A DNA stretch of 64,000 bases from an uncultured Nitrososphaerota archaeon. GTDB taxonomy: Archaea; Thermoproteota; Nitrososphaeria; Nitrososphaerales; Gagatemarchaeaceae. Under the pieces are notes generated by a model, which saw nothing but the letters and a program-made list of their open reading frames with translations, searched no databases and had not been told where the DNA came from. Numbering within the stretch: position 1 is the first letter of the stretch; every line of letters starts with the position of its first letter. This document shows positions 27,246 through 58,930 of the stretch, piece after piece. The stretch is from the NCBI GenBank assembly GCA_963718895.1, contig CAVRAG010000008.1, positions 800,001 to 864,000 on the forward strand, written 5' to 3'. A program made the position numbers and the translations under genes.

Positions 27246-27302
27246 TCATTGGCAGACCTTCACCTTGGTCGCGGCGACTGGCTCAAGCGTCGAGACGCGC
27301 AA
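27246..27302 (-). repeat. ATPase-tail repeat copy A
   Basis: LRVSTLEPVAATKVKVCQ*; matches copies at 49451, 51465, 58754. Confidence 0.7.
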
Positions 27303-27540
27303 GAGCAGAGAGGACGCCGAAGAGAAGGAGGAGAGCTTGAGGAGCTATGGCGTGAAGGTTGTCCCCGTGGACGCGGTCTCGCCGCTCTGGAAGAGAGCAG
27401 CCTCCCTGAAGGCGGGGCTCAGCGTGTCGCTGGCTGACGCATTCGCGGCGACGACCGCGCTGGAGCTCCGCGCCAAGCTAGTGACGGGGGCGGATGTGGA
27501 CTTCGATGGCGTACGCGCTCTGCAGGTGGAGAGGGTGTAG
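27298..27540 (+). pseudogene. PIN/VapC C-terminal remnant
   Basis: AASLKAGLSVSLADAFAATTALE...LVTGADVDF; 5' end replaced by repeat copy A. Confidence 0.7.
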
Positions 27541-27664
27541 ACCTGCCGCCCAGGTACCTGTGACTTGTTGGGTGTCGGCTTCGCCCTTCTCGCCCAGAAC
27601 GCAACCTCAGACCTCTCAAGAACTCCTAAAAGTTTAACATAGACGTTCACTCCCACTGGACACA

Positions 27665-28630
27665 TTGGCGCCAAGAAAAGGCAGTGAGTCCGACACCGCA
27701 GCGAAGAGTTTGATCGGTCCGGAAATCCTTAAGCGGGTGGCGACCGTAAACGCGATAGAGGCGGAACTCAGGTCGCTCAGTCGCTTGGTTGGCGCGGCCG
27801 GCCAGAAGAACGCCCCGGTCGGGGACATGTCGTCCCGCCGGGGTGAGCTGATCCAGAAGCTGCGAAAGGAACAGTCGAAGAGCGCTTTCAGGCGCACCCT
27901 CGAAGCGAGACGGGCCTCCAACCCAAACATCCAGAGCGCTCTCAACAGCATCTCGCAGCTGCTTGGTTGGTGCAACACGCTGGCGGTGCCCGTGATGGCT
28001 GAGGGAATCAACCAGACTCCAGGGATAGCGGGAACCCAGGGGGAAATCGGGACTGCTGGGATCTTTGGGGGTGGCGTGGCTTTCGGGGGCACGCCTGAGG
28101 ACGATGGCACGCACGACCCCAACACCGAGAAGTGGTGGATCCACAACTGGAACTCCACGGCCGTGTTCCCTGCGGCAGCCTCGGACGGGACGATCTCCTA
28201 CAAGTTTGGGATAAGCAACGAGACGGATATCTATCAAGCCTACGGGAACTCTGGGAGCGTCACCGTCTTCGTCACGGTCGGGACGACGGGCGACGTGAAT
28301 CAGCCCATCTCCAACTGGCAGACGGTCGGATGGCCCACAGACATCCCCTTGCCTCAGGGGCACTACTACGGCGGAGGGGGCTTCCCCGTCACGGGGACCA
28401 TACCCGTCAAGGGCGGGAAGAGCGCCGCGCTCGGCTTGATCTTCGGTGCGATAGTGAGCGTGGCGAGCGGACTGTGCATGTTCCTTCCGACCTCTAACAT
28501 ATGGACGGGCATCATTCGCCCTCCGGGGCAGCAGAGCCAGCCCGGGGACTACGGAAAGATCGAGTACTGCTTCAACCCCACGTGGTGGTACCACGCACTG
28601 GAGCAGAGGATGCTCATTCCGCAGGAATAG
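27665..28630 (+). CDS. Hypothetical protein (helical N-terminus, beta-rich C-terminus)
   Basis: 321-aa ORF with coding-like codon bias and upstream AT-rich box. Confidence 0.7.
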   Translation: MAPRKGSESDTAAKSLIGPEILKRVATVNAIEAELRSLSRLVGAAGQKNAPVGDMSSRRGELIQKLRKEQSKSAFRRTLEARRASNPNIQSALNSISQLLGWCNTLAVPVMAEGINQTPGIAGTQGEIGTAGIFGGGVAFGGTPEDDGTHDPNTEKWWIHNWNSTAVFPAAASDGTISYKFGISNETDIYQAYGNSGSVTVFVTVGTTGDVNQPISNWQTVGWPTDIPLPQGHYYGGGGFPVTGTIPVKGGKSAALGLIFGAIVSVASGLCMFLPTSNIWTGIIRPPGQQSQPGDYGKIEYCFNPTWWYHALEQRMLIPQE

Positions 28631-28787
28631 CCGTCTTCTGCATCTTTCGACGCGCCGCGGCGTGGGCCGCGGATGTTCACGGCTCAGTCCTCAGCGCTAT
28701 CTCTCCATTCTTCCCAAGAGCTTAACGTGCATTCATCACAGCCGCGAAGCCGCTGCGCAGGGCGTTTCAACCCATGGTCGTCCCAGT

Positions 28788-29186
28788 TTACATCTCTTCG
28801 TGGATGCGCTCCGCTTCGACTCTTATCAGTATTCGCGGGTCCTTTGGTTTTCGATCCTCGTAAGGGTATTTTGGTTTCCCAAGGTACTTCATACTCATCT
28901 TGTCGATGTGCTCTTCCGCCCCCTCCTCCGTGATCTCGATGGCCTTTCCCCGTATCGAGACGTTCGAGTACGGGTTGTCCTGGTCAAAGATGGTAATCGC
29001 GACTCGCCGATCTCTCCTGAGGTTCTTGGTGCGCTGTCTGCTTCTGGTCGTGTTGAGTATGATGGTGTCTCCTTCACGGTCTATCCAGAGAGGTGCCACC
29101 TGGGGCGAGCCGTCCTGCATCAACGTTGCCACGCTCCCGAAGTTCTTTCCGTCGATGAGCTCCTTCGCCCTGGTTGACAATCTCAT
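28788..29186 (-). CDS. PPOX-class F420-dependent oxidoreductase
   Basis: ATLMQDGSPQVAPLW...NLRRDRRVAI...YLG..YP. Confidence 0.9.
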   Translation of the reverse strand: MRLSTRAKELIDGKNFGSVATLMQDGSPQVAPLWIDREGDTIILNTTRSRQRTKNLRRDRRVAITIFDQDNPYSNVSIRGKAIEITEEGAEEHIDKMSMKYLGKPKYPYEDRKPKDPRILIRVEAERIHEEM

Positions 29187-30011
29187 GGCGGCCCTGGTGT
29201 GGGATGTTGCTAAAATCAGTTGAATGAGTCGGAACTCTCACATCCACGTTTCCTGGGTGCCTGTCATTGGCTTGTTGTGGACTTGCCGCACTGCGGGCGA
29301 ATCTGGTCACGGATGCCTTGAAGGAATTCCATGATCCCCATGCCATTCGAGTCTCTGTCCGAGATCTTCGCTAACCCGTCGCACGGTGAGCGCCTACACT
29401 GCTTCCTCGCTCGATCGCCTCAGCTAACTGCGCCCCGTGACAGACCGCGGAGAGACGCGCCTTCTCTCATGAAAGGGCTTTCCTAAGAGTACTCCAGTCG
29501 ACGTATCAGCGCTTGTCCGCTTCTCCCCCAGAGGTCGACAACCTCGGTCGACGAGGCGTCGGGTCGGGCAGGGGCTGGAGCGAGCTATGCGCCTTCCGCG
29601 CGACGAGAGCCTGGCTTGCTGCGTAGGCACAGAAGGGCCCTGGGGTGGTTGGGCGCCGGGACCTACGGATGGCTTATGCTCTGTGCAATCTCGTAAGGGG
29701 TGACGCAGTCGACCTCGGTGAGCTCGCACGGGATCCAGCCTGGCACGCCCCATCCATCGCGCTCCTCATCGGGCCGGCCGGTTCGATGTTCTACCTCGCG
29801 CAGTTGATAACCTATGGAAGCGTCCACGTCTGCGGAACCTTCGCCTCGCCCTGCGCGTGGCCCAACACTTGGCCTGGACCGCGCCCCCTTCCGGTCGCAG
29901 TTTCGGGGTCGGCCCGTCTCCGGCGCCCGCTTCATGAGTGGGTTTTCTTGATTCCCGGGTTCAAACGATTAGGCTACGTCACCTTTATCGCCATGACGAC
30001 GATGGAGACTC

Positions 30012-30227
30012 ATGACCGAAGCATTCTGCATGAAGGAGAAAACGAAGCGTGAGATGAACGGAGTGTCCGAGGTTCAGATGAGGAACGGCCGAAGGGCTCT
30101 CCAGGGGACGTGCCCGAGCTGCGGGACCAAGCTCTTCAGGATCGTGGGTAAGGCGAATCAGGCCGCGCCCCTGATCGTGTTCACTGCCCCTCGCGACGAG
30201 CTAACCACCGTTCAAACGACATTCTAG
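30012..30227 (+). CDS. DUF5679 zinc-ribbon-like protein
   Basis: AFCMKEKTKREM...MRNGRRALQGTCPSCGTKLFRI. Confidence 0.85.
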   Translation: MTEAFCMKEKTKREMNGVSEVQMRNGRRALQGTCPSCGTKLFRIVGKANQAAPLIVFTAPRDELTTVQTTF

Positions 30228-30370
30228 CCAGCCGACGGCCTGCGGCGATCTCTGCCAAGTCCAGCGGGTAGTCACTGCGCGAGGAAGCAGGACCGTACTG
30301 ACTCTCAAAATGCCTCTGAGGCTCGCGCTGATTCTCGATTCCCGGGAAGGTTCCGCCGCGGAGGTTGCCT

Positions 30371-30505
30371 TCAGACTCGCATGAAGAAGTTGTCGCCGCT
30401 CGTGAGCGCCTGCGGGCTTCGCTTGTGCGTCGTTCCACAGCGCCTGATGTGCCTCGCGTAGTTCTTCGAGCTGATCAGCTTGTGGCACTTCGGACAGATT
30501 GGCAT
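30371..30505 (-). CDS. 44-aa C2HC zinc-finger microprotein
   Basis: MPICPKCHKLISSKNYARHIRRCG; purine-rich SD-like sequence upstream. Confidence 0.6.
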   Translation of the reverse strand: MPICPKCHKLISSKNYARHIRRCGTTHKRSPQALTSGDNFFMRV

Positions 30506-30692
30506 CGTCCGAACGCTCTCTCCCTTCCTATTACGCGTTTCGCGTAGGTCTCTCCGGCAGGACCGTGGTTTCCTGGCCGACCCGCATCGAGCCGGCCCTA
30601 CCGGTCCAGCCTCGGGACTCCCGGAGGCCGGGTGCCCGTTCCGCCTCCCTCCCAGAGACATATTAGCTGCGTCATCCTTGCGGACGGTGAGG

Positions 30693-31595: not shown

Positions 31596-31659
31596 GACTC
31601 GTTGCAGGACCGCACCCCGCGGCGGACATCCCTGGCGACCCCGCGCACGTCGAGGCAGT

Positions 31660-31944
31660 CTAACTTCCGCTTGCGCGCTCCTTCTCCCTGAGTTCTGTCC
31701 ATTCGTGGCCGCAGTTCTTGCACTTGAACTTGTACTCGTACGTAAGATCGTCCACTTCCGTCTCCCTGCCGAAAGACCCGGGCACGCGTCGGCTGAATGG
31801 AACGAGATTGTCCAGCCCCTCTTCTATTTTCTCCGGCACACTCTCCTTGATGTCCTCCGCCTTTTCATCATCGATCAGCTGCGCGCTCTCTTCGGTCACG
31901 ACGCTGAAGAGGTGATGACAGTTTGGGCACTCTATCTTCCACAT
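31660..31944 (-). CDS. Zinc-ribbon protein
   Basis: CPNCH...YKFKCKNCGHEW. Confidence 0.65.
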   Translation of the reverse strand: MWKIECPNCHHLFSVVTEESAQLIDDEKAEDIKESVPEKIEEGLDNLVPFSRRVPGSFGRETEVDDLTYEYKFKCKNCGHEWTELREKERASGS

Positions 31945-32023
31945 ATCGCGACTGGGACTCCGAGCAGGACGTGCGATTTATGGATTTGCCGTGGGCCCCG
32001 GTCGTCACCGGGGAGGAGGTCCC

Positions 32024-33426: not shown

Positions 33427-33650
33427 GCGCTCGCTTCCTTCGACCGCGCAGGCGAACCCGTTCAAAAGTCTTTGATTGAGGCCTCCTTTTTGCGCCCAGC
33501 TTCTGGAAGTGGAGCGCGTCGACTTGCAGGGGACGACTAGACTGATTTGCCCTCGAACTCGATCTTCACCGGAATGGGCTCCTTGAAGATGAACACGACC
33601 GGGCAGTTCGCCTCGGTCCTCCTCCGAGCGGCTTCCAGAGAAGGATCCAC

Positions 33651-35813: not shown

Positions 35814-35836
35814 CGCCTATTTCTTCCGGTCTTTGA

Positions 35837-37453: not shown

Positions 37454-37621
37454 ATCGATCCTCTAGGAGAGGACGAGTGTCCGGCATAGTCGGTTATAAG
37501 CTCGGCTCGCTTTTGGCTGTAATCGACAAACATTCAGACCTTCAGCTTGGTTGCGATGACCGGCTGTGGCGTGACGGCGGCCGGTCAACCGTTAAATCCC
37601 TCCCGGGCTTGAAGATGGGCA

Positions 37622-39225
37622 TTGGAAGCCCCGGGTCGTAGCCTCAGCGCCGGCGCGCCGCCCATCCTTCATCTGGGCGGAGACGAGGAGGGGCCTTTCG
37701 ACGTGGACGCCAACGTGATCGCGACGGGGCGGACCTGCGTGATCGGGGCCTCGGGGTCGGGAAAGAGCTACGCGGTCGGGGTGATCTGCGAGGAGCTCTG
37801 CAAGAGCGGAGTGCCCTTCGCTCTCGTGGACACCGAGGGCGAGCACTCCGGGCTCAAGGAGAAGTACGACATGCTCCTGGTCGGCGACGGACAGGGGTGC
37901 GACCTCAGGTGGTCGAGCCTCGATCTCAGTGATCTGGGCCGTCAGGCGCCCGACCTCGCCCCGCTAATCCTGGACCTCTCCGAGACGGACGAGCCCAGGC
38001 AGAAGGTCTCGGACCTGCTCTCGAGCGTGTACGCGGAGGTCGAGAAGAGGAGGACGCCCTACCTGATCGTGGTCGAGGAGGCCGACAGGTTCGTCCCGCA
38101 GAACGGCGAGAGGGTCGCGATCTTCGGCGAGATAGCCAGGAGGGGGAGGAAGCGCGGCGTCGGGCTAATGGTCTGCACCCAGCGGCCCTCGCTCGTCGAC
38201 AAGAACATACTGAGCCAGTGCGGGAACCAGCTCATCGGGAAGCTCGTCATAAGGAACGACCTGCAGGCCGTGAGCCAGTTCTTTCACGGCCGTGACCTCC
38301 CCAAGGAGCTCACCGCGCTCTCGGCAGGAAGGTTCTACGCCATGGGAGGGCTCTCCCCGCGGCCGAGGCTCGTCACGATAAGGGAGAAGGAGACCCACTA
38401 CCGAGGGGGGACCCCGAGGATCGTCCCGCGGGTCGTGAGGGCGTTCAGACCTTCTGGCGTCGCGCCATGGCGGGACGGCTTTGGAATCCGCCCCCGCTGG
38501 GCCCGTCCGGGGGCCATCCCTCGTCGGGTTCAGCCCCACGTTCGGGCTCGAGGACATCCCCTCCATGGTCAGGCGCGACAAGGCGTTCATCTTCTTCGGC
38601 GGCAAGGAGACCGTCGCCAGCGCTCGGCTGGTCCTCCGGCCGATGGTCGAGCTCGGCGTCGCCGTCAGGACAGGGGTCCTCAGGAAGAGGGTCGGGCTGA
38701 GGTACCTCCTGCTCGACGGGCCGACGGGCAGGTTCGTCGAGCTCTGGGACGCTCCCGTCGGCCCGCGACGGGTTGCAGGGCCTAATCGGGCTGACCGCGG
38801 AGCAGGTCGAGGTCCTCCGGGAGACCAGCACCGACAGGGACAGGGGGGCCCTGGAGATAGCCAGCAAGGTCGGCGTCTCGGTCCAGACGCTCAGGCGCGA
38901 GATGAGGGTCCTGGAGGGGAGGAGGCTCGTCAGGTCGGTCCAGGCGGGCAGGTCACACCTCTACAGGCGCGTCTACGACTTCCCCGAGCTCGCATGGCAC
39001 GACTCGGAGCAGGCACTCGAGCCGGTCGACGCGCCCGGGACCGCGGAGGCGAGCGTCCTCGCCGAGGAGAAGCTCCGGGAGCTGATCAAGGGCCTCGTTC
39101 CGCACTCCGAGGTCCAGGCGTACAGGGAGTTCGTCTATCCGCTCTACCGCGTCGAGATGGTCCTCAAGAGGAAGAAGAGGATTGTCTGGCTCGACGGCCG
39201 CACGGGGAAGGAAGTCGGTCCCTAG
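37622..39225 (+). CDS. HerA-like ATPase with C-terminal winged helix, frameshifts near 38470 and 38760
   Basis: GASGSGKS, VVEEADRF, RGRKRG, TQRPS; then EIASKVGVSVQTLRREMRVLEGRRLV. Confidence 0.8.
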
Positions 39226-39250: not shown

Positions 39251-40606
39251 CTATCCTGTCGTGCTAGGCTCTTCGGCCATCCTAGCCTTTGATATCACGG
39301 GTCTGAACTTGGCCCTGAAATCTGTCCTCCCGCTATCTGAGACCTCTATCTCCGCATCCTCGCCCAGAACCCTGCGGCACCTGGCAACGAGCTCTTCTTT
39401 GGCCACGTCAGGCTCACCCTTTCTCTTCATCAGCTGTATCCTGAACTGGCCCATGGTCTCCTGCACCGCCTGGTATCTTGACACCCCGGGAGATCCTTGT
39501 ACTGCAGTCATGATGGTCCTCGGGGTGACCAGCCGACCGCCAGGGAGGGCAAAGCAGTCAGACATCCTTCCCTCGATGGACTTCAACAGGGGTAGGCCTC
39601 GCCCGCAAGAGCAGTACTTGTCGTCGAGGACACCGATGTCCCCTACCCTGTATCTTATCAGGGGCATGGCGTAGTTCAGGAGATTTGTGACGACGATCTC
39701 TCCCCTCTCGCCAGCCGAGATCCGTTCGCCTCCCCTCACCACCTCCATGATGAGCATATCCGCATCGATATGGTAGCCCTCCCTTTTCGTGCACTCCCAA
39801 GCCCCATTCCCAAAATCCCAGGAGGAGTACTCGTCGAAGACCCTGCACTTGAACGACGACTCGAGGTATCGCCTCGTCTCGCCGTCGGTGAGCTCCCCTT
39901 CGGTCCTCACGACCTTGTCGGCGAGGCTTTCGATTCCCCTGTCAGCCATCGCCTCCGCAAGCAGCCTGAGATAGGATGGAGAACCGCGGACGAGCTTCGG
40001 ATCGAACTTCAGCATGTGGGTCAACACCTGGTTCGCATCATCGAACAGAGGGATGCTCCTCCTTCTATCGTGCAGCAGACGGACTATCGGCCCCAGACTC
40101 TCTCTCCCGCGGGATAATCTCCTCCCTTCCGCCGGCTCCCTGGTTCGGTCTTGATCTCTCTTGGGGGGCGCGCCGAATTCTATCACCAGGACCTTCCGCC
40201 AGGGTTCGACCCCGATCGCCCACTGCTTCCTGAATATCCAGGCGGCCTGACAGTAGTCCCAGAACCTCTTGTCGTAGAACACGGGCATCGGGCCGCCGCT
40301 TGTCCCGGAGGTCGAGGCCCGGATGCAGTTCCGGAGATCGAATCCCCTGGCTATGCTCCGGTGGGGTATGCCGTCCCGGACCTCCTGCTTCGTCGTGAAG
40401 GGAAGCTTCTGGAGGTCCTCCAGCGACCTGATGTCTTCCGGCTTGATCCCTTGGGCGTCGAACTTTTCCTTGTAGAGAGGCACGGCATTGTACGCGTGGC
40501 TGATTATCTCCCTCAGCCTCTTCTCTTGAAGCCGTCTGAGCTCGCCGGGCCGGAGCCACTGGTTTCTTGACAGCTCGTAGCAGTACCAGACGACCCGGCG
40601 GAGCAT
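39251..40606 (-). CDS. Phenylacetate-CoA ligase/CapK family protein
   Basis: LPFTTK, TSGTSG, GEIVVTNL, MPLIRYRVGD. Confidence 0.9.
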   Translation of the reverse strand: MLRRVVWYCYELSRNQWLRPGELRRLQEKRLREIISHAYNAVPLYKEKFDAQGIKPEDIRSLEDLQKLPFTTKQEVRDGIPHRSIARGFDLRNCIRASTSGTSGGPMPVFYDKRFWDYCQAAWIFRKQWAIGVEPWRKVLVIEFGAPPKRDQDRTREPAEGRRLSRGRESLGPIVRLLHDRRRSIPLFDDANQVLTHMLKFDPKLVRGSPSYLRLLAEAMADRGIESLADKVVRTEGELTDGETRRYLESSFKCRVFDEYSSWDFGNGAWECTKREGYHIDADMLIMEVVRGGERISAGERGEIVVTNLLNYAMPLIRYRVGDIGVLDDKYCSCGRGLPLLKSIEGRMSDCFALPGGRLVTPRTIMTAVQGSPGVSRYQAVQETMGQFRIQLMKRKGEPDVAKEELVARCRRVLGEDAEIEVSDSGRTDFRAKFRPVISKARMAEEPSTTG

Positions 40607-40740
40607 CCGGCGCGGCGATTTCAGCCGCGGATATAACGACTCGCCAGAGCCGGCCTTTGGGAGGTGCGCACGTACCACCGTTGGACCCTTGGCGCTCGGT
40701 CAGGTCGAATGGAGGACCTCGAAGATCAGCGTGGCCGATT

Positions 40741-43289: not shown

Positions 43290-43615
43290 AGAGCAAGACA
43301 GGGCATCAGGGCGCGCCCAGATTTAAGGTGCTTGTGACTGGTCGAACGCGGGTCTCTTCGCAGTTCCCGCCGAGAGCGCAGCCGGCAGCCTGGGGCTCGT
43401 AGCCGCCTGTGCGCTCGAGGGCGTGCGCAAAGTTCGCGACGAAGCGCTCGTCATGCGGAGTGATCAGGGGCTCAAGAGTCGTTGAAAAGGTCCGTCGAGT
43501 CCAAACATCTTTCAAGGTTCTACGGCCGCTCTAATCGCGGTTCTAGCAGATTCCGATTATGCTCGAGGCAAGCATATAACCGCCGGTCCCCATACCAATC
43601 CACGCCGAAACTCGA

Positions 43616-48004: not shown

Positions 48005-48385
48005 TCATGTCCCGCAAGAGACTCTGGCCATCCAGGTCTGGATGTGAGTCTCTTCGCAGTTCTCGCGGAGGTTGTAGCCGGGTCGCCGGGCGGTGCCCCT
48101 GGTGAATATCGCCAGCTCATCCGACGGCAGGAGAAACATCGTCCTTCTCATGCACCACGCCCTCACCAGCGTCCTTTCCTTCCACAGCGCAGTGTCCACG
48201 TCCTGGATGCTGGGCACCTCGACCCGTGTCCAAAGCGACATCTGAGCCGCCAACAGCACCTGTGCCTGCGCCCCCATCATGTCGCCGGCTGCCGAACCCA
48301 GGGCTGCGGCAGGGGCCCGCTTTGAGAGATGGTGCCGGGAAAGCCTGAAGGCGGCCACCTAGTTCCAAGAGGCTCGGATGGCGTC
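48005..48385 (-). pseudogene. AlkZ/YcaQ-like winged-helix DNA glycosylase, N-terminal remnant
   Basis: FRLSRHHL, GAQAQ, LWTR, LVRAWCMRRTMFLL; TAG at 48359-48361; C-terminal two thirds absent. Confidence 0.75.
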
Positions 48386-48948: not shown

Positions 48949-49359
48949 TCACTTCGCGCCGGGACTTTCCTGCGTCCGCACCTTCACGGAGATGACGGCA
49001 GTCAGCCGTTCCCCCCTCAGCCGGGCGACTCGATCCACGATCGCGCTCCCGATCGCACCGTATTCTTTCCTGAAGAGTTTCTGTATCCGGACGACTTCAT
49101 CCCCCTCCACCGCGTGCGCGTCTCCGTCGACCCAGGGTCCGGTCGGCTTTCCGTTCCTGTCCGAGAGCGCTATGCGGACATGAGCGTCCCTCCTGATCCT
49201 CTTTACCTTCCATGTCCTCGGGTCTGTGCGGAACCAGACCAGACCGCCGTCTTCGATGGACTGGACGGGAGTCAGTTTCGGGGTCCCGTCCTTCTTGTAC
49301 GACTCTACGGTGATGTACCTTCGCCCTGAGAACTGCTCGACGGGATTCCCTGGTTCCAT
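48949..49359 (-). CDS. PPOX-class F420-dependent oxidoreductase
   Basis: YITVESYKKDGTPKLTPV...WKVKRIRRDAHV. Confidence 0.88.
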   Translation of the reverse strand: MEPGNPVEQFSGRRYITVESYKKDGTPKLTPVQSIEDGGLVWFRTDPRTWKVKRIRRDAHVRIALSDRNGKPTGPWVDGDAHAVEGDEVVRIQKLFRKEYGAIGSAIVDRVARLRGERLTAVISVKVRTQESPGAK

Positions 49360-49450
49360 AACGGTCGTCTGGCGAGAATTTGGTCTGCTTCGGTTAATAA
49401 AGGAGAGATGCGATTCCCAGCAATGGGAGCCGGACTCGCCCGCGTCGCGC

Positions 49451-49495
49451 CTACCCGGAGATTTTCACCTTGGTCGCTTGGACCTGGTCCGGCGT
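49451..49495 (-). repeat. ATPase-tail repeat copy B
   Basis: TPDQVQATKVKISG*. Confidence 0.7.
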
Positions 49496-49576
49496 CTAGG
49501 TTGGTGAGGGTTGGGAACGTGACAGAGATCCTGTTCAGCAGCGTGCTCGAAGCTCGGTGCCTCTACACGGAGATGT

Positions 49577-49735
49577 CGGAAAGGCATAAACGGGACGAGA
49601 AGAGGTTGAGGGAAGAATGACCTCGGCGAGGCTAACGAAGAAGAAGGAGGCTGAGCTTAGGCTCGTCGCGGACTCCACTCATGACGCCCTGCTAGCGACT
49701 GCGGCCAAAGTAACAAAGGTCGCCAAGAGCTAGGG
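49577..49735 (+). repeat. ~160-bp direct repeat copy 1, includes 38-aa ORF 49617..49733
   Basis: MTSARLTKKKEAELRLVADSTHDALLATAAKVTKVAKS*. Confidence 0.85.
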
Positions 49736-49957: not shown

Positions 49958-49966
49958 GGTGTTCGA

Positions 49967-50296: not shown

Positions 50297-50455
50297 CGGA
50301 AAGGCACAAACGGGACGAGAAGAGGTTGAGAGAAGTATGACCGCGGAGAGGCTAACGAAGAAGAAGGAGGCTGAACTTAGGCTCATCGCCGACTCCACCT
50401 ATGACGCCGTCCTGGCCACTGCGGTCAAGGTACCAAGGGTCGCCAAGAGTTAGGG
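50297..50455 (+). repeat. ~160-bp direct repeat copy 2, includes 38-aa ORF 50337..50453
   Basis: MTAERLTKKKEAELRLIADSTYDAVLATAVKVPRVAKS*; offset 720 bp from copy 1. Confidence 0.85.
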
Positions 50456-50698
50456 ATTCGGACGGGAAGCCGTCTGGCCCTCCCAAACAGCTCAATTCCG
50501 ATTCTACACCCTGATCAAGCCTGAATCACGGCATTTGCCCCAGGCGGAGCACATAGACGCGACTCACGACACTCACCGGTATGGCTCGCCACTTCTCATG
50601 CTCGCAACCCTTACGGCCATTCTCATCGCCTTCGCGAATGAAGGCAAATGGTCGCTGCGCTTAAGTAGTACCAAGCGCATGTAGTACTGCGAGAGATT

Positions 50699-50929
50699 AT
50701 GGCTGAAGAAGTGGTAGTAACCCGGAAGGGCCAGACAACAGTTCCGATTAGACTGAGGAAGAAATATGGCATATCCGAGGGAACGAGACTTGTAGTTGAG
50801 GACACCGGTACAGGCATCCTGTTCCGGAAGGCGTCGAGCGTCCTGGACTTGGCAGGCACGGGCGCCAAGTCTGCTACTGTGGACGAAATGAAGAAGCTGC
50901 TGGACGAGATGAGAGCCGAAGAGGATTGA
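50699..50929 (+). CDS. vapB: AbrB/MazE antitoxin
   Basis: VTRKGQTTVPIRLRKKYGI. Confidence 0.9.
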   Translation: MAEEVVVTRKGQTTVPIRLRKKYGISEGTRLVVEDTGTGILFRKASSVLDLAGTGAKSATVDEMKKLLDEMRAEED

Positions 50930-51315
50930 AAGGCAGTTCCTTCGACACAAGGTTTTTGGTGGAACTGTTCTATTCTACAGATGAAAACACCCAGAGCAAG
51001 ATCAGAGCCATACTTCTAAACTCGAAGCCGAATATCCTCTCGACCGCTGCTCTTTCAGAAGTCTACAAGCTCACCCTAGAAAAGGAGGGCGAGGATGTGG
51101 CTGAGATCCGAGCGAATTCCCTAGGTAAGGACTTCCGGTTGGTAGACGTGGACAAAGAAATCGCCATTCAAGCGGCAATCATCAAGCACAGGTACGGGAT
51201 ACCCTTTGCCGATAGCTTGATCGCGTCTACCGCCACGGTCCTCGGCGTACCTTGCTACACCGACGACCCGCACTTTCACGACATCTCGGGTTTGAACGTA
51301 AAGTGGCTTCGCTGA
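50926..51315 (+). CDS. vapC: PIN-domain VapC toxin
   Basis: FDTRFL, SEV, ADSLIA, TDDPHF; 4-bp overlap with antitoxin. Confidence 0.9.
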   Translation: MKGSSFDTRFLVELFYSTDENTQSKIRAILLNSKPNILSTAALSEVYKLTLEKEGEDVAEIRANSLGKDFRLVDVDKEIAIQAAIIKHRYGIPFADSLIASTATVLGVPCYTDDPHFHDISGLNVKWLR

Positions 51316-51464
51316 AGACGAGAAGCTTGCTGATTCCCACCATTCGAGACCCTGCACCAGGCTCTCCTCATCAGGGACCTGAAGAGAGGCCTACGGGCGT
51401 TCGCGAAACCATAATCGGCCAAGCGGGGCAATGACTCCGGCCCGAACGTCTGAGAGTCGTCTGG

Positions 51465-51580
51465 TCACGCCGAGACCTTCACCTTGGTCGTCTGGACCTG
51501 GTCCGGCGTCGAGACGCGCACCATGGCCCCGCCGATCTTAAGGAGACCTCGTTCAGAGATGGACTCGTCCTCTCCAATGT
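51465..51580 (-). repeat. ATPase-tail repeat copy C
   Basis: LLKIGGAMVRVSTPDQVQTTKVKVSA*. Confidence 0.75.
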
Positions 51581-51588
51581 CCACAGAA

Positions 51589-52317
51589 TCATGCAGGCAC
51601 TTCGATACGCTTCGATCGGCCTGCCTCCAGCCCCAATCGAAGATGTCTCTTCTTCGTTGGCGCATTCTCCAGCCGCGCCTCGACGAGCTTCCTTAGGCGC
51701 TTGTACTGCTTCCGGACCGTCACTTCTCCTACCCCAGCCGCCTCTGCAGCCTCACGCTGGGTCAGCGCGCTGCCCTCAAGCATCGAGGCCAGATAGAGGG
51801 CCGAGGCAGCGAGCCCCCGGGGGTAGACGCCGTCGGTGATTCCCGCTCTCTCGGCTTGCGACAGTATCTCTCGAGCATCCGCCTCCACCTTCAGCCCCAC
51901 ATTCGTTCGGTATGCGACCCTCGCCAAGCACTCCGTTGGGTCGCCGACGGGGATCTTCAGGTCGAGCTCGTTGACCAGCGACCTGTACCACCTAGCTACC
52001 GTTATGCTTCCCACGCCGCTGGCCGCGGCCACGTCATCGAGGGTTGTTGCGATGCTCCTCTCCCTGCAGGCGGCATAGAGCGATGAGACGGCGATTTTGG
52101 CGAGTGGCTTCCCCTTCGCCAGACCCGTTTTCAGACTTCTATTGTAGATAGAGGTCGCTTCGTCTGTCACCTCGTGGGGGAGGAGAAGTTTGTCGGAGGC
52201 CTTCTTGATTTCTCTGAGAGCAACTCCTGCTGCTTCAACCCTGTTCTCTGTGATCAATGCCTTCAGCCTCCTGGGCTGAGAACCTCCTGACCAAGTTGTC
52301 CATTCCAACCACGGCAA
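51589..52317 (-). CDS. TFIIB/TFB-like cyclin-fold protein lacking zinc ribbon
   Basis: LYAACR...TLDDVA...LYLAS...TQREAAEAAGVGEVTVRKQYK. Confidence 0.8.
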   Translation of the reverse strand: MPWLEWTTWSGGSQPRRLKALITENRVEAAGVALREIKKASDKLLLPHEVTDEATSIYNRSLKTGLAKGKPLAKIAVSSLYAACRERSIATTLDDVAAASGVGSITVARWYRSLVNELDLKIPVGDPTECLARVAYRTNVGLKVEADAREILSQAERAGITDGVYPRGLAASALYLASMLEGSALTQREAAEAAGVGEVTVRKQYKRLRKLVEARLENAPTKKRHLRLGLEAGRSKRIEVPA

Positions 52318-52385
52318 TCAGTCATCCCGCAGTTTCGGCCGCTGCTGTGAAGATCCAATCTTGCCGAGCGCGGGCTGATTATGTG

Positions 52386-53345
52386 CTATTTCGACCGAGC
52401 TCCCCTAGACGCGAAGATCACTCCGGCTAACACAATGGCGACAGCCACCACAACGTAGCTCGCGTCATTGCCGAACGACGAGGAACCCGAGGTCGTTGAC
52501 GATGAGGTAGACGAAGTGGTCGATGACATGGAGGTTGAAGTGGTTGTGGAGCTTGAGCTGGCACCACTTGAGACCATGGAACTGGTCGTACTCGTTGAAG
52601 GTGTAGTGTTGGTGGTGCTCGAAGTCGCAGTTGTGCTTGCCGTGTAGGTCTGGCTGCTCAGGCTCAGCAGATATGTGTTCATGTCAGTTGCCGCGTGGGC
52701 CCCGGGTTCGGAGAACTCTCCCACCGCAAAGCCAACCTCAATCGAAGTTCCTGAAGCGAGGCCGAGGAACGGGTCGTGAGGCGAAGCGTTGGTGAGATGG
52801 AGTGGCCGATAGCATTCTGCCGTGTAGACGGTCCCTGAGAGGGCCAGTGCACAGGTCGACTGGGTCTTGTAGCCGTCGGTTTCGACCGATGTCGGAGTGG
52901 TCTCAGCCTGAGATATGAACTCGTCGTAACCTCCCTTGAAGGAGGGACTGACGAGAAGCATGATGGCTGGGTTGAGCGCAGTTCCCATTACACCGACGTT
53001 GCTCGCGTTATCGAACTCGACGCCGCCGTAACAGTACTGGTCGGTACAAAGTCCGCTGGTGATCATCTCGGGCCACTGCATGAGAATGAACAATCCGGTC
53101 GCGTTGTGTTTGAAGGCGACGCCCATGCTCGAGACCGAATCGTTAATCATCTGGGCATCGCTCCATTCACCAGGAGAGACCTTCCCGTCGAGCTTCACCG
53201 GCGCTTGAGCCTGATAGGCTACGAGGGTCTGGGCTGCGCTCACGTGTGGAACGGCCGCTGCCAGCAGAAGGGCCAGGAGGAGCGCCAGAGGGAGGGTACC
53301 GAATCTTCGTTTACGGAGCACAGCTAACCTATCTTCCAATGACAT
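52386..53345 (-). CDS. Secreted, membrane-anchored DOMON/CBM9-like protein
   Basis: Signal peptide; PVKLDG..SPGEWSDA; YTAECYRPL; S/T stalk; C-terminal TM. Confidence 0.65.
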   Translation of the reverse strand: MSLEDRLAVLRKRRFGTLPLALLLALLLAAAVPHVSAAQTLVAYQAQAPVKLDGKVSPGEWSDAQMINDSVSSMGVAFKHNATGLFILMQWPEMITSGLCTDQYCYGGVEFDNASNVGVMGTALNPAIMLLVSPSFKGGYDEFISQAETTPTSVETDGYKTQSTCALALSGTVYTAECYRPLHLTNASPHDPFLGLASGTSIEVGFAVGEFSEPGAHAATDMNTYLLSLSSQTYTASTTATSSTTNTTPSTSTTSSMVSSGASSSSTTTSTSMSSTTSSTSSSTTSGSSSFGNDASYVVVAVAIVLAGVIFASRGARSK

Positions 53346-53557
53346 CCACCCTGAGGTCAGGAGGACATTCCCAATGGTCTACTCGTTCCGACCTGTCCGA
53401 AGCTCTCCACGGGGAGAGTGCATCGCCTACTGCATGCCCGTTAGCGGACCGTTTGCTCCTGTAATTTCCTCGCTGACCCTTCATGTCTACATCTAGGTCC
53501 CTCTGGTCTCTTCTCCAGTCCTCTTGGTTCTCGCTGTTGAGTCGTAGCTTGTGGGTG

Positions 53558-55220
53558 CTATGACCAGGCGGTCTCCGCTGCTGCATTGGTCCCCGCGATG
53601 CGACCGGAGATGAAGGTCCAGATCATGTGTGTGCCGTGACCTGCGGGCATCGACCCGCCCTTGCCACTGTCGCCACCGGCATACAGCCTGGGGATTGGTT
53701 TGCCGGCTTCATCCACCACGTGCAGGTCTGGGAAGGAGATGTTCAGCGTACCGTTAGTCTGCTGTGTCGAGTACATCGACGACTTCATGCCGTAGAAGGG
53801 CGGGGTGAGTATTCCGGGCCCAAGTGTCGACCTATTGAAGTCGGCGTCCTTGCCTGCAGTGCAGTAGCCGTTATACTTCGTCACCGTGGCCGCCAGACCC
53901 GTCGCGCTTATGCCAAGGGCATTGGCCAGGTCTGTCAAGGTGCTGGCTTGCGACAGCACCCCCTGGGCCAGCCATTCATTGAAGTATGTGTGCCCCGAGC
54001 TAATGTGCATCACCACATTGGCTTTGGCTGGAACGCTGTCGAAGATCATGTAAGCTGTGCTATTCGTCTGCGCCAGCGTGTCTGTAGCAGTGGTGCTCCC
54101 TATCTCGTTCGTGAATCTGACCCCTTGGTTGTTGACCCATATGGCGTACGACATGATTGCTGGCTGATACTGGTAGGCTGTCAGCTTCGCGTTGGGGTTG
54201 GTGGAAGTCGACGGGTATCCATATGAGGTGTCAGGGTTGATGTGAGTGTTCACTACGTCCCACTTGAGCTGGGGCGCAGGCACGTTGTCGAGGCAAATCG
54301 GCGCGCCTCCGATAGCCATCGCCTCTATGATCGCATCGCCAGTGTCCCCTGGACATGCGGAGCTTGGCAATGAGAAGTAGCTCGGAGTCGTTCCAAACAT
54401 CCCAAGGAACTTCTTGTTGGCGGATGGGTCACCCGCGGCCAAGACCACGGCTTTCCTTGCCTTGACGTTGATGACTTTGTTTGCGCTCTGCGCAGTGACA
54501 CCTATGACACCGTTGACGGGATCTCGGATGAGAGACGTCACCGGGGTACTGTACAGGAACGTGACGCCTTTGGCGGTCGCGGCTCGCATTGAGAGTCGTT
54601 GGGTATGTTGAGGAGTTCGGTACGGCCGCCATGAGACGAGGGGCGGTGCTCGTCCCGTCAAGAAGTGGGCTGTACGGCTGCCAAATCACTCCCTGCGCAG
54701 TCAGGAAATCGATTGCCGCGGCGCCGTTGTTGGTGATAAGCGTCGCAAGCCCCGGGTTGATTCTTGGGTCGGTGCCAGGGCCCGTCAGTTCGGCAAAGTA
54801 TTGGGCGGGTGAGTCCGTTATGCCCGCTGCAGCTTGGTACTTGGTGCCGCATCCTGATAGCGTGCCAGCGCAATGGCCAGAATCCGCCAATAGCGAACTG
54901 GGCTCCTTCTCCAGGACGAGTACCTTGGCTCCGGCACCAACTGCTTCTATCGCAGCGGATAGGCCGGTTGTGCCTGCGCCCATTATGACGACATCTGCTG
55001 TGTAGTCCCAGGTTGAAGGGATTCCCAGAGTCGTCGTGGCCGTCTGCGTCTGGGTGACAGCAGGCTGCGTCGTGGTCTGAGTCGAAGTCTCTGTCGTCGT
55101 CGAGGCGGACTTCCCCAGGTATCCGCCCGTCGCACCTATCACAGCGCCGACCGCAAGGCCTGCTACTGTTCCAGCTACGAATCTCCGCCGTGTTAGTGTG
55201 CCTTTTGATTCTTCAGTCAA
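53558..55220 (-). CDS. Tat-exported FAD_binding_2 flavoprotein 1, frameshift near 54585
   Basis: TRRRFV; GAGTTG; VVLAAG; DTGDAI; IPRLYAGG; SGRIAG. Confidence 0.85.
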
Positions 55221-55253
55221 TCTATATCTGAGTAACGAGTTGTGTCCAGTTCG

Positions 55254-55297
55254 TATTAAGGTGGGACGTAACATGTGCAACCAATCCGACATCATTT
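55254..55297 (-). promoter_or_regulatory. Conserved promoter/operator of flavoprotein 1
   Basis: TATTAAGGTGGGACGTAACATGTGCAA, 22/27 identical to 58461..58487. Confidence 0.65.
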
Positions 55298-55536
55298 GCA
55301 CCCGCAATTCGAGATGAGTGCGAGAATCGTAAACGAATCCTGTTCTAGGCATCCGGAACGAGCAGGCTCGAAACCCCTTCATCGGCTTCGCCTGTTGGGG
55401 CGCTTGCCTTGTTGCCCTTTTGGGTCTGCGGACGTGAGGAACTTCGTAAGAATCGACCGGAAACGAGGGTCAAAGTCCGTTCGAATTGGAACCGATTCAT
55501 CAGCAGCCTCGGCCAAAACCCACCCGGCACTGCGCT

Positions 55537-55880
55537 CATACGCGAGTCAGGAATATCAGGTTGTTGAGGACCGGGGCGATGGCCCCAGCTAGGAGGGCAA
55601 GGGAGAGCACCAGATAGAAATCAAAGATATACTCGTTCATCCTGTGCCACCACCGCCACACGACGATCGACACTACCGCGAAGAACAGCGAGACGACGAT
55701 CTTTGCGATTACGTATCCTTGGACCCCTACACTGGCGATGACATAGGCAGAAATCCCGTTGATCTCCGTCCTCCGTTCGAAAGGCCGACTTCGGTCGTGT
55801 ATGCGTCGACTGCGTTGAGGATGCAGAAGACGGCGATCATCGCTGAGGCCAGCTTGATGCGGGTACTCACGGTAAGTTGC
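55537..55880 (-). CDS. DUF5658-like membrane protein, frameshifted
   Basis: LNAVDAYTTEVGLSNGG / EINGI...AKIVV...VLNNL. Confidence 0.6.
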
Positions 55881-55935
55881 TGAATCCCGCCATCAGGTCG
55901 GGCTCTCATGACCTTGTCACACAATTGGCTCGTCG

Positions 55936-56484
55936 TTAACCCTTTCGCTGGACAAATAGCCTCACCAAGGATTCTCTTGCCTGCGCCGGACCCCGCGACC
56001 TGTCTTCCGCATACTCGTGGTGCCTTTTGTTCAACTTATCCTCTTGCCCAGCGGCTGCAGCCTCCAGTGCCGTGGGGTAAACGCCGCCTGTGATCCCCGC
56101 CTTCTCGGCCTTCGACAGCATCTCGAGAGCGTCAGCCTCCACCTTCGGCCCCACTTTCGCTCGGCACGCCACGCTTGCCAGGCACTCCGCTGGGTCGGCG
56201 ACGGGGATCTTCAGGTCGAGCTCCCCGACCAGCAATCTGTATCGCCTGGGTACTGCTTCCTTTCCACGCGGCTGGCTGCTGACACGTCTCCCAGCGTCAC
56301 CGGGGCCTTCCTCTCCCTCCAGGCGGCATATAGGGGACGCGGCAGCGATTTGGGAGAGCGGCCTCTCTCTGGCGAGACTTCTATCCAGACTCTTCTTGCA
56401 TATGCGAGCAGCCTCGTCCGAGACCGCCACTGGGATTGAGAGTTTCTCGGAGAACTGACCGAGTTCCCCGAGCGCGATTCCCAC
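55936..56484 (-). pseudogene. Second TFB-like gene, degraded
   Basis: ELDLKIPVADPAECL...KVEADA...AGITGGVYP matches 51589..52317; indels and truncated ends. Confidence 0.75.
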
Positions 56485-56668
56485 TTCAGTTCTGCTTAAT
56501 CGACAGTCTCTTGACCGTGTACCCTATTACCAGCCCAATCAGCAGGAGGACGACCGTCGCGCCGAAATTCGCAGTGGTCACCAGTCCACTTTCACTTGTC
56601 TCTAGCTGTTCAGGAATTCGCGGGCATGGGGAGAGATGCTCCAGTGAGGAGCACCTCGCGGAGTGGGC

Positions 56669-58426
56669 CTACGATGTCCAGGGGACCTCGTTGGTAGCGT
56701 TGTTCCCGGCGATCCGGCCGAAGGCGACCAACTCGCCTAGGTTGCTGCTTCCCGTGGGATAGAGGAACGCCACGCCTGACCCGAGCTCTCCCGCAGAGTA
56801 AAGTCTTGGGATAGCTGTGCCATCGTAGCGGCAAACCTGAGCTTTCTCATTCCGTATGGGTCCTCCGTTCGTGTTTGGTCCTCCGGGCCACACCGCAACG
56901 GCATAGAAGGGCGGGGTCACAATCGGAGCCATCGTGCTAGCAGCCCTACCGAACTGGGCGTCACTCTTTGCTGCGACCGCTTGGTTCCATGTGTTTACCG
57001 TGGCTGTCAGGACCTTCGGATCGATGTTGAAGCTTATCGTGGTCGCAGGCCCCCCAATACCTGACCCAGGATACACGTCCACGATTGTCGCGCTGTTAAT
57101 GGCGTTCGCCAGGTCTGCAATGCTCGTTTGCCCCTTTATGATCCATCCCTTCGCTATCTCTGGAAGGTTGGTCGTGCTCCACGCAGGAGCACCTCCCAAC
57201 TGGGACGGAAGCTCGCACTGCGCAGCTGTCGGCTGTGGTCCGATTGGTCCGGCCAGCCTCAAGGTCTCGTCGAATATTATGAAGCTGGGGATTCGAGTGT
57301 ACTCAGGTACATCTGGATTGAAGTCTTCCATCCATATCCATCCTCCGTGGCCAGTCATGGTAGAGTCAACTTCATTTACGTACCTGTATCCGTACTTGTT
57401 TACGTAGATGTAGTTGTTGCTAGGGGTTGAAACGTTCGTAGCCGTGGGGGACCATGCCGCATTCCAGAGAATTGGGCGTCCCGCCATCGAATTGGTGTGC
57501 CATAACCCCGCCCCGACTTTGAGACCCATCTCTATTCCGTCGCCTGTGTTGAATTGCCAGCCGTAGAAGTGAACTGGGTACGACCTGAGGTAATTCAGCT
57601 TCATGTCCTCGTTGTACTCGAAGCCCCCAGTGCACAGAACCACCGCCCTCTTCGCCTGGATGTTCACCATTTCGCCCATGTTCTGAATGGCTTGCACTCC
57701 TAGAATCTCATTGGTCTTCGGGTCTTGGACGAGGTCGGTTGCTCGGGTGTTGAAGGCAACAGGAATGCCCCGACTCTGGACGAGCCCATCTAGGGCTTGG
57801 AAGAATCCAGCACCCGCGCCTGCAATCATGTACGACGTTGTCATACCTGCGTATATGCCCGGAAGCCCTGGGTACTCTTGGGCTCGTAAACTGCCGGCAT
57901 ACTTGATACCCATCGCATCAAGCCAAGCTTTATTCTGGTATGCCACTGCATCCCACGCTTGACAGTACGGCATTGGTGTTGCTCCCCAGGCTCCATTGTA
58001 GAGTCCCTCAACCGCGGCGACAGGGTCGTTTGGGCTCTCTACGCCGCCACCAGACATGTGAGTGTTTCCACCGCCGCCAGAGATCTGAGTATAAGCTGTA
58101 GTTCCGTTGGTTACTCCTAAGCTAGCGAGGCTCGGAGTCTTCTCGAGTATGAGTACTTTGGCTCCCATGTCGAAGGCGGTGATTGCGGTGATGGCGCCCG
58201 CGCCTCCGTAGCCCACGACGACGACGTCGGCCGACATGGTCCAGTTCGATGGTACCGGGACTGGTTCACTTCGGGGGGCCGCGGAGCCTCTGCCGATTGG
58301 CACCGCCCCGACCTTCGGAACAAAACCTGCTGCCCCTGCCACAGCGCCGAAGGCCGCCGCACCAGCTACCGCTGATCCCATGAACTGTCTCCTTGATAGT
58401 TTCGTACCCGATATTGGATCTGTCAA
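56669..58426 (-). CDS. Tat-exported FAD_binding_2 flavoprotein 2
   Basis: SRRQFM; GYGGAG; LCTGGFE; NTGDG; IPRLYSAGE; FGRIAG. Confidence 0.92.
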   Translation of the reverse strand: MTDPISGTKLSRRQFMGSAVAGAAAFGAVAGAAGFVPKVGAVPIGRGSAAPRSEPVPVPSNWTMSADVVVVGYGGAGAITAITAFDMGAKVLILEKTPSLASLGVTNGTTAYTQISGGGGNTHMSGGGVESPNDPVAAVEGLYNGAWGATPMPYCQAWDAVAYQNKAWLDAMGIKYAGSLRAQEYPGLPGIYAGMTTSYMIAGAGAGFFQALDGLVQSRGIPVAFNTRATDLVQDPKTNEILGVQAIQNMGEMVNIQAKRAVVLCTGGFEYNEDMKLNYLRSYPVHFYGWQFNTGDGIEMGLKVGAGLWHTNSMAGRPILWNAAWSPTATNVSTPSNNYIYVNKYGYRYVNEVDSTMTGHGGWIWMEDFNPDVPEYTRIPSFIIFDETLRLAGPIGPQPTAAQCELPSQLGGAPAWSTTNLPEIAKGWIIKGQTSIADLANAINSATIVDVYPGSGIGGPATTISFNIDPKVLTATVNTWNQAVAAKSDAQFGRAASTMAPIVTPPFYAVAVWPGGPNTNGGPIRNEKAQVCRYDGTAIPRLYSAGELGSGVAFLYPTGSSNLGELVAFGRIAGNNATNEVPWTS

Positions 58427-58460
58427 TTTAAGACGTCTGAAAATTTGCGATCTGCAACTC

Positions 58461-58513
58461 TATTTAGGCGGGACGTAATGTTTGCAAGCAATTTGGGTGC
58501 AAGTGACATCATT
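58461..58513 (-). promoter_or_regulatory. Conserved promoter/operator of flavoprotein 2
   Basis: TATTTAGGCGGGACGTAATGTTTGCAA and GACATCATTT shared with the 55254 region. Confidence 0.65.
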
Positions 58514-58753
58514 TCCCCGGATGAGCGAGAGCGGTCAGCATAATCGAGACTTCTGTTGGGACCGCTCCCAATTCATCAGTGTCTTATCTCGGGGCGCCAA
58601 CGCTGGTCACTAAAGCCGGGCCAGGGCGCTTGTTTCTCATCTGTACATGCCTTCCCCTGATTCTCCCCGATATCCCGTTACCCATTACAATCTGAGCGTC
58701 GGGCCTGTAGAAAGATGTGCTCAATGTCGCCTCTCATCGACTCTTATCATTGT

Positions 58754-58930
58754 CTATTCGGCGACTTTCACTTTGGTCGTCGCGACCTGCTTTGGCGTCG
58801 AGACGTGCACCATGGCCTCGCCGATCTTCAGGAGCATGAACTGGGAGATGAACCTGTCGGCCTCGTGCTTGTTGACCATGAACCGAAGCATCAGGTCGAT
58901 GTCCGACCTTCGAAGATCGCAACCCCGTTC
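58754..58930 (-). repeat. ATPase-tail repeat copy D (longest)
   Basis: SDIDLMLRFMVNKHEADRFISQFMLLKIGEAMVHVSTPKQVATTKVKVAE*. Confidence 0.75.

Follow-up and report, generated by a model that had tools for sequence, protein, structure and literature searches.

In the soil archaeon Candidatus Gagatemarchaeum, a member of the Nitrososphaerales without ammonia oxidation, the last codons of two genes recur as short repeats throughout a chromosomal island of about 83 kb (822.7-906.2 kb on contig C8), part of which falls in the 64,000-nucleotide (nt) window analysed here (C8:800001-864000). One repeat family, T, copies the end of a small ATPase gene, and the other, R, copies the end of a core radical-SAM gene. 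We think it probable that the island is additive and grew by serial insertions, each of which replaced the 3′ end of a gene and displaced the old end downstream. A first-pass annotation of the window had taken four T tails for the mark of an undescribed family of integrative elements. This claim was too strong, as insertion into the 3′-distal part of genes and re-use of the same site are already described for Thaumarchaeota (PMC6563490); within an additive island present across the genus, the tails make up one of two families of scars and do not single out a separate family of elements. Positions in the window are given below as plain numbers and those on the contig with the prefix C8.

Two families of gene-end repeats

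A DNA profile built from the four longest T copies and run with nhmmer over the whole 3.13-Mb assembly returned eight significant copies (E = 2.9e-37 to 8.2e-8), at C8 827246, 849448, 851462, 858750, 874526, 875861, 879210 and 892420. The next-best match had an E value of 0.0099, a gap that excludes chance. All eight copies are on the minus strand and lie within 66 kb (827-893 kb), with none elsewhere in the genome. The copy at 879210 is the end of an intact parent gene, and 7/7 orphan tails are on the parent's strand (chance 0.008). Further copies were also found by a six-frame motif search and by tblastn with the longest tail. The first-pass annotation had anticipated both additional copies and a full-length parent, and eight copies, the intact parent and more copies in related genomes were found.

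All four tails reported for the window were recovered on the minus strand, in frame and terminated by a stop codon: T827 at 27246..27301 (last 17 codons plus stop; E = 2.6e-10), T849 at 49448..49499 (last 13 codons plus stop; E = 8.2e-8), T851 at 51462..51579 (last 34 codons plus stop; E = 6.2e-32) and T858 at 58750..58906 (last 49-50 codons plus stop; E = 4.3e-35). They read ...VSTLEPVAATKVKVCQ, ...TPDQVQATKVKISG, ...VSTPDQVQTTKVKVSA and DIDLM...KIGEAMVHVSTPKQVATTKVKVAE, respectively. Their description as diverged, differently cut at the 5′ side and devoid of the gene body was accurate: copies are 82-88% identical to the parent at the nucleotide level, and the six tails downstream of the intact gene have 5′ extents of 52, 53, 88 and 153 nt within the window and 96 and 249 nt outside it. 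Aligned as DNA, the four window tails have a core in common, about 45-50 nt long and closed by the stop codon. In five downstream tails (875861, 858750, 851462, 849448 and 827246), homology ceases no more than about 5 nt past the stop codon; the orphan tail at C8:874526 retains the usual stop, and its match to the parent extends about 30 nt beyond it. No common motif follows the stop, with no 9-mer common to at least three of 14 downstream flanks.

The R family shows the same architecture at an unrelated gene. The island begins at the 3′ end of the core radical-SAM gene (Radical_SAM and Zn_ribbon_HMPTM domains), which lies intact outside the window at C8:906078-907769, is present as a single copy and has 89-97% amino acid (aa) identity across the genus. 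Ten R copies, each comprising the last 50-80 nt of this gene and encoding ...GENGEEIHIQPITGT*, are confined to C8:822668-906150, and 9/10 are on the gene's strand. Six in-frame copies terminate at one common position, with TGA, TAA or TAG as the stop codon, and the copy at 905513 runs on without one. A common orientation and a common 3′ limit are directly visible in the repeats. Within the window, R copies occur on the minus strand at 22668..22728, the weakest copy and the low-coordinate limit of the island (E = 0.0082 genome-wide, 0.00067 in the island set); at 27549..27611 (E = 8.2e-7), with an orthologous copy in the closest relative, G001 (L015 16019-16080); at 43322..43383, upstream of a TMEM175-like gene (nhmmer E = 4.2e-6; also found by blastn-short); and, as a short copy, at 48036..48068 (nhmmer E = 0.0005). 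The two families are interleaved, and in G001 an R copy lies 70 nt after the stop codon of the parent ATPase gene. A core common to R and T was sought by eye; the comparison gave about 8/12 matches at different offsets, which we took as chance.

The location of the island is conserved throughout the genus, its flanks matching G010:C4 62.8-97 kb and G007 1.125-1.182 Mb. R matches were present in 15/23 genus genomes, with same-strand arrays in G007 (7/7), G014 (8/8, spaced by 631-2106 nt), G018 (6/6) and G010 (4/4); the 5′ extents of R vary, reaching about 270-280 nt in G018 and G014, and cassettes bounded by R copies in these relatives are as small as about 0.4-2 kb. Among six species compared pairwise, homology ended at the radical-SAM gene end in 15/15 pairs. 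The first cassette behind this gene was different in each of the six, and this first block was followed by another R copy in all five species with a contig long enough.

T copies were likewise found in relatives (three in G001, two in G011 and one each in G010 and G007), and synteny between our genome and G001 breaks at T 3′ ends in three places: at the parent, at T827 and its G001 orthologue (G001_b; L015 16809-16876), whose downstream flank differs, and at a marginal degenerate tail at 37535..37572 (minus strand; E = 0.02 genome-wide, <0.01 in the island set) paired with G001_c. The degenerate tail lies 18 nt upstream of a luciferase-like monooxygenase gene, whose orthologue in G001 has a tail 1.6 kb upstream. 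These breaks agree with the earlier proposal that the tail is a recombination or cargo site, but R is the more widespread junction. The expectation that the parent resides inside a mobile element did not hold: no recognisable element surrounds it, and its setting is a hypervariable island of the chromosome with synteny conserved across the genus.

The two long tails carry a signature of purifying selection. Compared with the parent, T875 had a ratio of nonsynonymous to synonymous substitution rates (dN/dS) of 0.31 at a dS of 0.26 (synonymous excess, p = 0.008), and T858 a dN/dS of 0.28 at a dS of 0.40 (p = 0.012); the orthologous ATPase genes of our genome and G001 gave 0.29 at a dS of 0.27. 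Such orthologue-like values indicate that both tails diverged as parts of working genes rather than as decaying local duplicates. As in elements that insert at gene 3′ ends, direct repeats copy the target end and flank the insert, and both the parent ATPase gene and the radical-SAM gene are intact. Among 39 database homologues, the closest full-length allele of each tail was at best 75-88% identical, so no donor can be named.

G001, which comes from a separate study and whose contig is named Candidatus Gagatemarchaeum stordalenia, shows the same architecture. Public short-read runs contain the organism at low depth only, with contigs of 150-300 nt. Both junctions of T851 were bridged by independent short-read contigs from three of these runs, whereas at these depths T849 had no read cover and T858 almost none; the expectation that reads would span the junctions was thus borne out for one tail. 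A short-read joint linking 52097 to 56385 was rejected: it involves two TFB paralogues and 33 foreign letters, and most likely stems from another paralogue or organism.

Proposed serial insertion and its alternatives

In the scheme that we favour, blocks of about 0.4 to 22 kb would have been inserted repeatedly at the extreme end of a gene. With every block would come a further copy of the last 50-250 nt of the gene, including the stop codon, such that the gene stays whole and its previous end is pushed downstream as a 5′-truncated orphan. The radical-SAM gene would be the first target, and the accessory 373-aa ATPase gene, itself inside the island, the second. The likeliest reaction would be a single crossover of the Campbell type that joins an incoming DNA circle to the resident end of the gene, catalysed by an enzyme encoded outside the blocks, either a recombinase acting in trans or host homologous recombination on the 50-250-nt repeat. 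It is the circular intermediate, the order of events and the enzyme that we infer here.

No recognisable integrase was found in the island, in agreement with the first-pass annotation. A six-frame search of our genome with PF00589 gave four matches, none of them at C8 820-900 kb, and PF16795 gave no match. The best hit of tblastn with the genome's own four integrases over the region had an E value of 0.018. Pfam scans of 123 + 91 open reading frames (ORFs) detected no integrase, resolvase, transposase or Cas1, and the 61 proteins of R-R blocks that were scanned included no recombinase. Among ten relatives, PF00589 matched nothing in the G007 island interval or in the fetched island contigs of the other nine; in G014, which has eight R copies, it had no match genome-wide at 82% completeness. 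One integrase candidate, a 475-aa ORF after the parent tail in G001 (corresponding to 39251-40678 in the window), turned out to be a PaaK/F390-synthetase-like ligase.

These searches bear on a more conventional account, in which classical elements each carried a tyrosine integrase and an attP site copying the gene end, and all integrases were later lost. The attL/attR-like direct repeats and the incoming stop codon do match thaumarchaeal elements (PMC6563490), and the genome encodes tyrosine recombinases elsewhere; one of these, at C8:1338882-1340267, has similar hits in relatives and is probably conserved in the genus. However, about 50 T and R copies mapped in island pieces of nine genomes were accompanied by no integrase gene or fragment on the same stretches, although Prochlorococcus islands still show integrase fragments (bioRxiv 10.1101/2020.12.28.424599). 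Many blocks, moreover, measure 0.4-1.5 kb and hold one small gene, too small for an integrase plus cargo. We therefore consider this account improbable; the lack of integrases across so many repeats, together with the small size of the blocks, favours an enzyme that the blocks do not carry.

The same negative searches also weigh against serial insertion itself, as do several properties of the copies, the first four of which fit a different explanation: a graveyard of whole ATPase genes, acquired separately or with their own neighbours and then eroded, without any site-directed insertion. First, three ATPase fragments do not derive from the 3′ end but from residues 15-40 (881556), 42-62 (862875) and 264-278 (893332); the second of these, at 62875..62943 on the minus strand, is a parent-type internal piece (residues about 42-65, after Walker A; E = 0.007) that matches 880141-880196 with 89% nucleotide identity and is fused to the end of a 364-aa ORF. 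Second, a 45-nt piece of a different, HerA-like ATPase gene (58922..58966, minus strand), resembling the gene at 37622-38782, directly precedes T858, 18 nt upstream of it. Third, the 5′ edge of T827 abuts a truncated vapC and was made by a deletion inside that gene: only the 3′ half of the PIN/vapC gene remains (27298..27513, plus strand; profile positions 49-117 only), and G001 has about 480 nt more at this edge, with ORFs of 133 and 111 aa. Fourth, tails in G010 and G011 (G011:C295) are cut on the 3′ side as well, and are thus truncated on both sides. In addition, one T copy (892420) is found on the upstream side of the parent, next to a paralogous ATPase gene; the short tails (20 and 34 codons tested) gave no usable dN/dS signal; no empty ATPase-gene site was seen in the island lineage; and no free or circular form of a block was seen.

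Erosion of whole genes would also suit the patchy distribution of the ATPase family and an island rich in other paralogue families (TFB and Tat flavoproteins), and a dN/dS of about 0.3 is equally compatible with former whole genes and with replaced ends. Yet random erosion leaves unexplained why 7/10 fragments in our genome retain the last codons, why five homologies end at the stop codon and why 10/10 fragments are on one strand. It also does not account for the unrelated, single-copy radical-SAM gene showing the same stop-terminated, 5′-truncated, same-strand copies, or for a different first cassette in each of six species. We consider a pure graveyard unlikely. Nonetheless, the non-terminal fragments, the 3′-side cuts and the deletion edge of T827 indicate that decay and rearrangement also shaped the copies. 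The notion of repeated capture put forward in the first-pass annotation is thus upheld in that tails mark junctions of captured DNA, but some 5′ cuts, such as that of the 27246 copy, arose by later deletion.

Homing of the type known from WHO elements would proceed differently, a block-encoded endonuclease cutting the gene end and repair installing the block with a resistant end while displacing the old one. Repeated 3′-end replacement with downstream clusters is the architecture of WHO elements at FBA1 (PMC7282813). Many island proteins lack a family assignment, and PIN-domain genes lie within 150 nt of 4/8 T copies. VapC proteins are usually RNases. Against homing, the Pfam scans yielded no LAGLIDADG, HNH, GIY-YIG or intein-like gene, with the limit that many block proteins match no family; the small proteins encoded in the first cassettes behind the radical-SAM gene are unrelated; and the tail-adjacent PIN genes adopt three different geometries relative to the tails (convergent, divergent and co-directional). 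We rate this mechanism as very improbable. Searches of PDB sequences with three proteins of no known family gave no match, and an Atlas look-up of the G007 first-cassette protein returned only hypothetical or HEPN_Apea-like leads.

Least credible of all, in our view, is that the repeat is a functional non-coding element (an attC-like site, an RNA, the template of a diversity-generating retroelement or a terminator) that was copied for its function. Copies are 80-95% alike though most are untranslated, as this idea would predict, but the window contains no Rfam family at gathering score, and folds of five repeat copies on both strands revealed no common hairpin (z = -2.15 to +1.53). No reverse transcriptase turned up in the Pfam scans, and the substitutions that separate T875 from the parent affect all four bases (T, G, C and A) and are not adenine-specific. 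Longer copies simply continue as parent coding sequence. There is also no tRNA gene in the window.

A bolder version of the scheme is a doubtful but real possibility: that the island is a working gene-capture platform without a cassette-borne integrase, with the radical-SAM end (50-80 nt), and secondarily the ATPase end, as a recombination site for insertion, excision and exchange between species. Such a platform would be driven by an enzyme in trans or by short-homology recombination, and would constitute an archaeal functional analogue of the integron made from other parts.

The parent ATPase, its neighbours and the cargo

The intact parent gene lies 15 kb past the right edge of the window (C8:879198-880319, minus strand). 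Counted from its ATG it is 373 codons long; it encodes Walker A and B motifs, and its third-position GC content (GC3) is 0.89. The first-pass annotation had noted a likeness of the longest tail to HerA/FtsK-type ATPases, and the parent indeed matches PF01935 (DUF87, the central domain of the helicase HerA) with 33.9 bits against a cut-off of 23.2 in its 406-aa frame; PF01935 is also found in its homologues. Across 23 aligned family members, residues G39, G42, G44, K45 and S46 of Walker A and D259, E260, A261 and H262 of Walker B are invariant. The best NCBIfam match, to the DNA-translocating ATPase CedD, scored 87 bits where the cut-off is 600, HerA models reached 27-37 bits against cut-offs of 800-970, and the best PADLOC matches were the mad8 and HerA models. 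Taking as the yardstick for HerA, CedB/CedD or VirB4 proper the NCBIfam equivalog cut-off and a full length of about 490-590 aa or more, we classify the parent, on its sequence, as a small FtsK/HerA-superfamily ATPase and not as any of these proteins.

The 39 database homologues (E ≤ 1e-10) bear source names such as Nitrososphaerales or Thaumarchaeota archaeon. In the 23-member alignment the usual C terminus is ...TKVKVxx*. The parent itself has lost this stop: CAG stands in place of the TAG or TGA of other copies, and the gene continues for five extra codons (879198-879215). The gene is accessory, with close homologues (33-88% identity) in 7/22 other genomes of the genus; G003 and G021 encode the ATPase at 52-53% identity in another context, without tails. 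A search for related loci returned only the G001 contig, its metagenome twin and two short contigs, one of which (L024) has another downstream context, and a search of viral contigs with an IUPAC pattern of the tail gave no match.

Two further ATPases of this kind are encoded in the island. A paralogue 32% identical to the parent lies at C8:893387-894526, and a third HerA-like (DUF87) gene lies at 37622-38782. The latter is followed by a gene for a 150-aa winged-helix protein with weak Csa3/CasR-like matches (pair at 37622-39225), and by comparison with G001 and G011 this pair seems to have been inserted downstream of a PaaK-like acyl-CoA ligase gene (39251..40678, minus strand). The ligase gene is itself cargo: it directly follows the parent tail and an R copy in G001, directly precedes a tail in G011 and stands apart from both in our genome. 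The 5′ end of the parent-type gene appears to have been displaced once as well, in that its first 40 or so codons and upstream sequence recur 1.3 kb upstream of the parent (76% identity over 169 nt; C8:881556-881719, L001 17556-17719), with hicAB and a SnoaL-like gene in between. A 381-aa protein encoded at C8:895311-896456 (L002 11311-12453) has no match in Pfam, NCBIfam, PADLOC or PDB; relatives with 23-29% identity lie no more than about 3 kb from the ATPase gene or its fragment in G001, G003 and G021, where the other neighbours differ, and the protein may act as a partner of these ATPases. Another large unassigned candidate, an ORF of 425 aa located upstream of the parent, is a repeat-rich surface protein.

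The cargo downstream of the tails is different at each copy, as the first-pass annotation had stated, and all copies have one orientation. It had also named the neighbours correctly. T849 is followed by a PNPOx-family gene (48949-49359; PNPOx_N). T851 has a TFB paralogue (51589-52317) on one side and, on the other, a convergent vapBC-like pair on the plus strand (50699-51315), in which a PIN/vapC gene is preceded by a 76-aa ORF. After T858 comes a Tat-signal FAD_binding_2 flavoprotein gene (56669-58426) with an SRRQF twin-arginine start. The secreted protein proposed to follow T827 is a 181-aa protein that has a hydrophobic N terminus and belongs to no Pfam family. In G001 and G011 the PPOX cassette has T on one side and an inverted R copy on the other; in G010 it comes directly after T.

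By Pfam, the island's ORFs comprise metabolic enzymes, TFB paralogues, Tat flavoproteins, vapBC, hicAB, restriction-modification and other defence-like genes. R-R blocks contain a methyltransferase, an ABC-transporter pair, vapBC, aldo-keto reductases, glyoxalase-like, endonuclease V and GNAT proteins, and a helicase-based defence set. In its gene-proximal part, the island additionally encodes a C-5 cytosine methylase with a Vsr endonuclease (L030 768-3632) and a DpnI-like restriction protein of the Dam-replacing family (L002 14952-15743). Three TFB (TFIIB-repeat) paralogues or fragments (51589-52317, 55936-56484 and L001 5972-6694) and four Tat-signal FAD_binding_2 flavoprotein genes or fragments are found in the island, and both families have many copies in related genomes. 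At about 825-893 kb, 4/6 PIN (vapC-like) genes or fragments adjoin a tail within 150 nt (50926-51315, 27298-27513, L001 14638-15072 and L002 8553-8921); toxin-antitoxin pairs may merely settle at block junctions. A conserved small ORF of about 39 codons (MT..RLTKKKEAELRL...) occurs twice on the plus strand with 88% nucleotide identity, at 49566-49685 and about 50350-50470, and also adjoins a tail in G011:C28. An aldo-keto reductase gene (C8:864626-865738) is 94% identical at the nucleotide level to its counterpart in G007 (L034 10422-11375), compared with 88.5% for the radical-SAM gene and about 73-83% for other shared genes, which could reflect recent transfer or conversion. We discarded this cassette as evidence of transfer as a unit: the match covers the gene only and not the spacer to the repeat, and thus speaks neither for nor against it.

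The expansion of Gagatemarchaeum genomes has been ascribed to early lateral acquisition followed by gene duplication (PMC10640624), and the main text of that paper on the family's genomes contains zero occurrences of islands, mobile elements or integrases. The island described here provides a physical address and a readable record of this expansion, in which displaced gene ends mark the boundaries of blocks. If the insertions indeed need no block-borne integrase, there is an archaeal route of gene capture still to be identified; if the repeats are only old scars, the locus still illustrates cleanly how one insertion hotspot can be nested in another, both at the ends of protein-coding genes.

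Relation to known systems

Replacement of a gene's 3′ end by an incoming copy is familiar from the icd gene of Escherichia coli, in which the attP sites of e14 and phage 21 carry a long copy of the gene's 3′ end; the gene is restored upon integration, and a 3′ pseudogene fragment is left at the far end. That case concerns a single bacterial prophage with its own integrase and forms no array.

The nearest relatives in kind are the cryptic integrated elements and the casposons known from Thaumarchaeota (Krupovic et al. 2019, PMC6563490), which belong to the same phylum and also target the 3′ ends of protein-coding genes. Of 68 such elements, 14 insert in the 3′-distal part of protein genes, and one site has been re-used in tandem. 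Shared with our island are the incoming replacement end with its own stop codon, the flanking direct repeats and the tandem re-use of a site. By contrast, the thaumarchaeal elements have integrases or casposases and att sites with a median of 17 bp, whereas here no recombinase was found and the repeats measure 30-270 nt. The arrays described here also reach 8-10 copies, many of their units are single genes of 0.4-1.5 kb, and a gene inside the island has become a second target.

Tycheposon islands of Prochlorococcus (bioRxiv 10.1101/2020.12.28.424599) resemble this island in that newcomers push older inserts inward, partial targets are scattered and the cargo is adaptive or defensive. They differ in using a tRNA gene as the target, in having intact elements with tyrosine recombinases and in retaining integrase fragments in their remnants. 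WHO elements of Torulaspora and Lachancea (Coughlan et al. 2020, PMC7282813) likewise replace the 3′ end of a housekeeping gene and form clusters downstream, but they are eukaryotic, each has a gene for an HO-like endonuclease, and they spread by cleavage and gene conversion.

The first-pass annotation had called the locus integron-like. The likeness is real at the level of layout: as in integrons, small and mostly unrelated cassettes lie between repeats of about 50-80 nt, next to a fixed anchor, in an array whose anchor-proximal slot is the most variable. The parts are not the same. Integrons rely on IntI and on attC sites with a structured, imperfectly palindromic fold; here there is no IntI or other tyrosine recombinase nearby and no attC-like fold, the repeats are the coding end of a gene, and some cassettes, including many blocks of our genome, hold several genes, which may lie on either strand. 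The analogy with integrons is thus one of architecture only; islands of this kind are already known, and what distinguishes the present one is arrays without a block-borne integrase.

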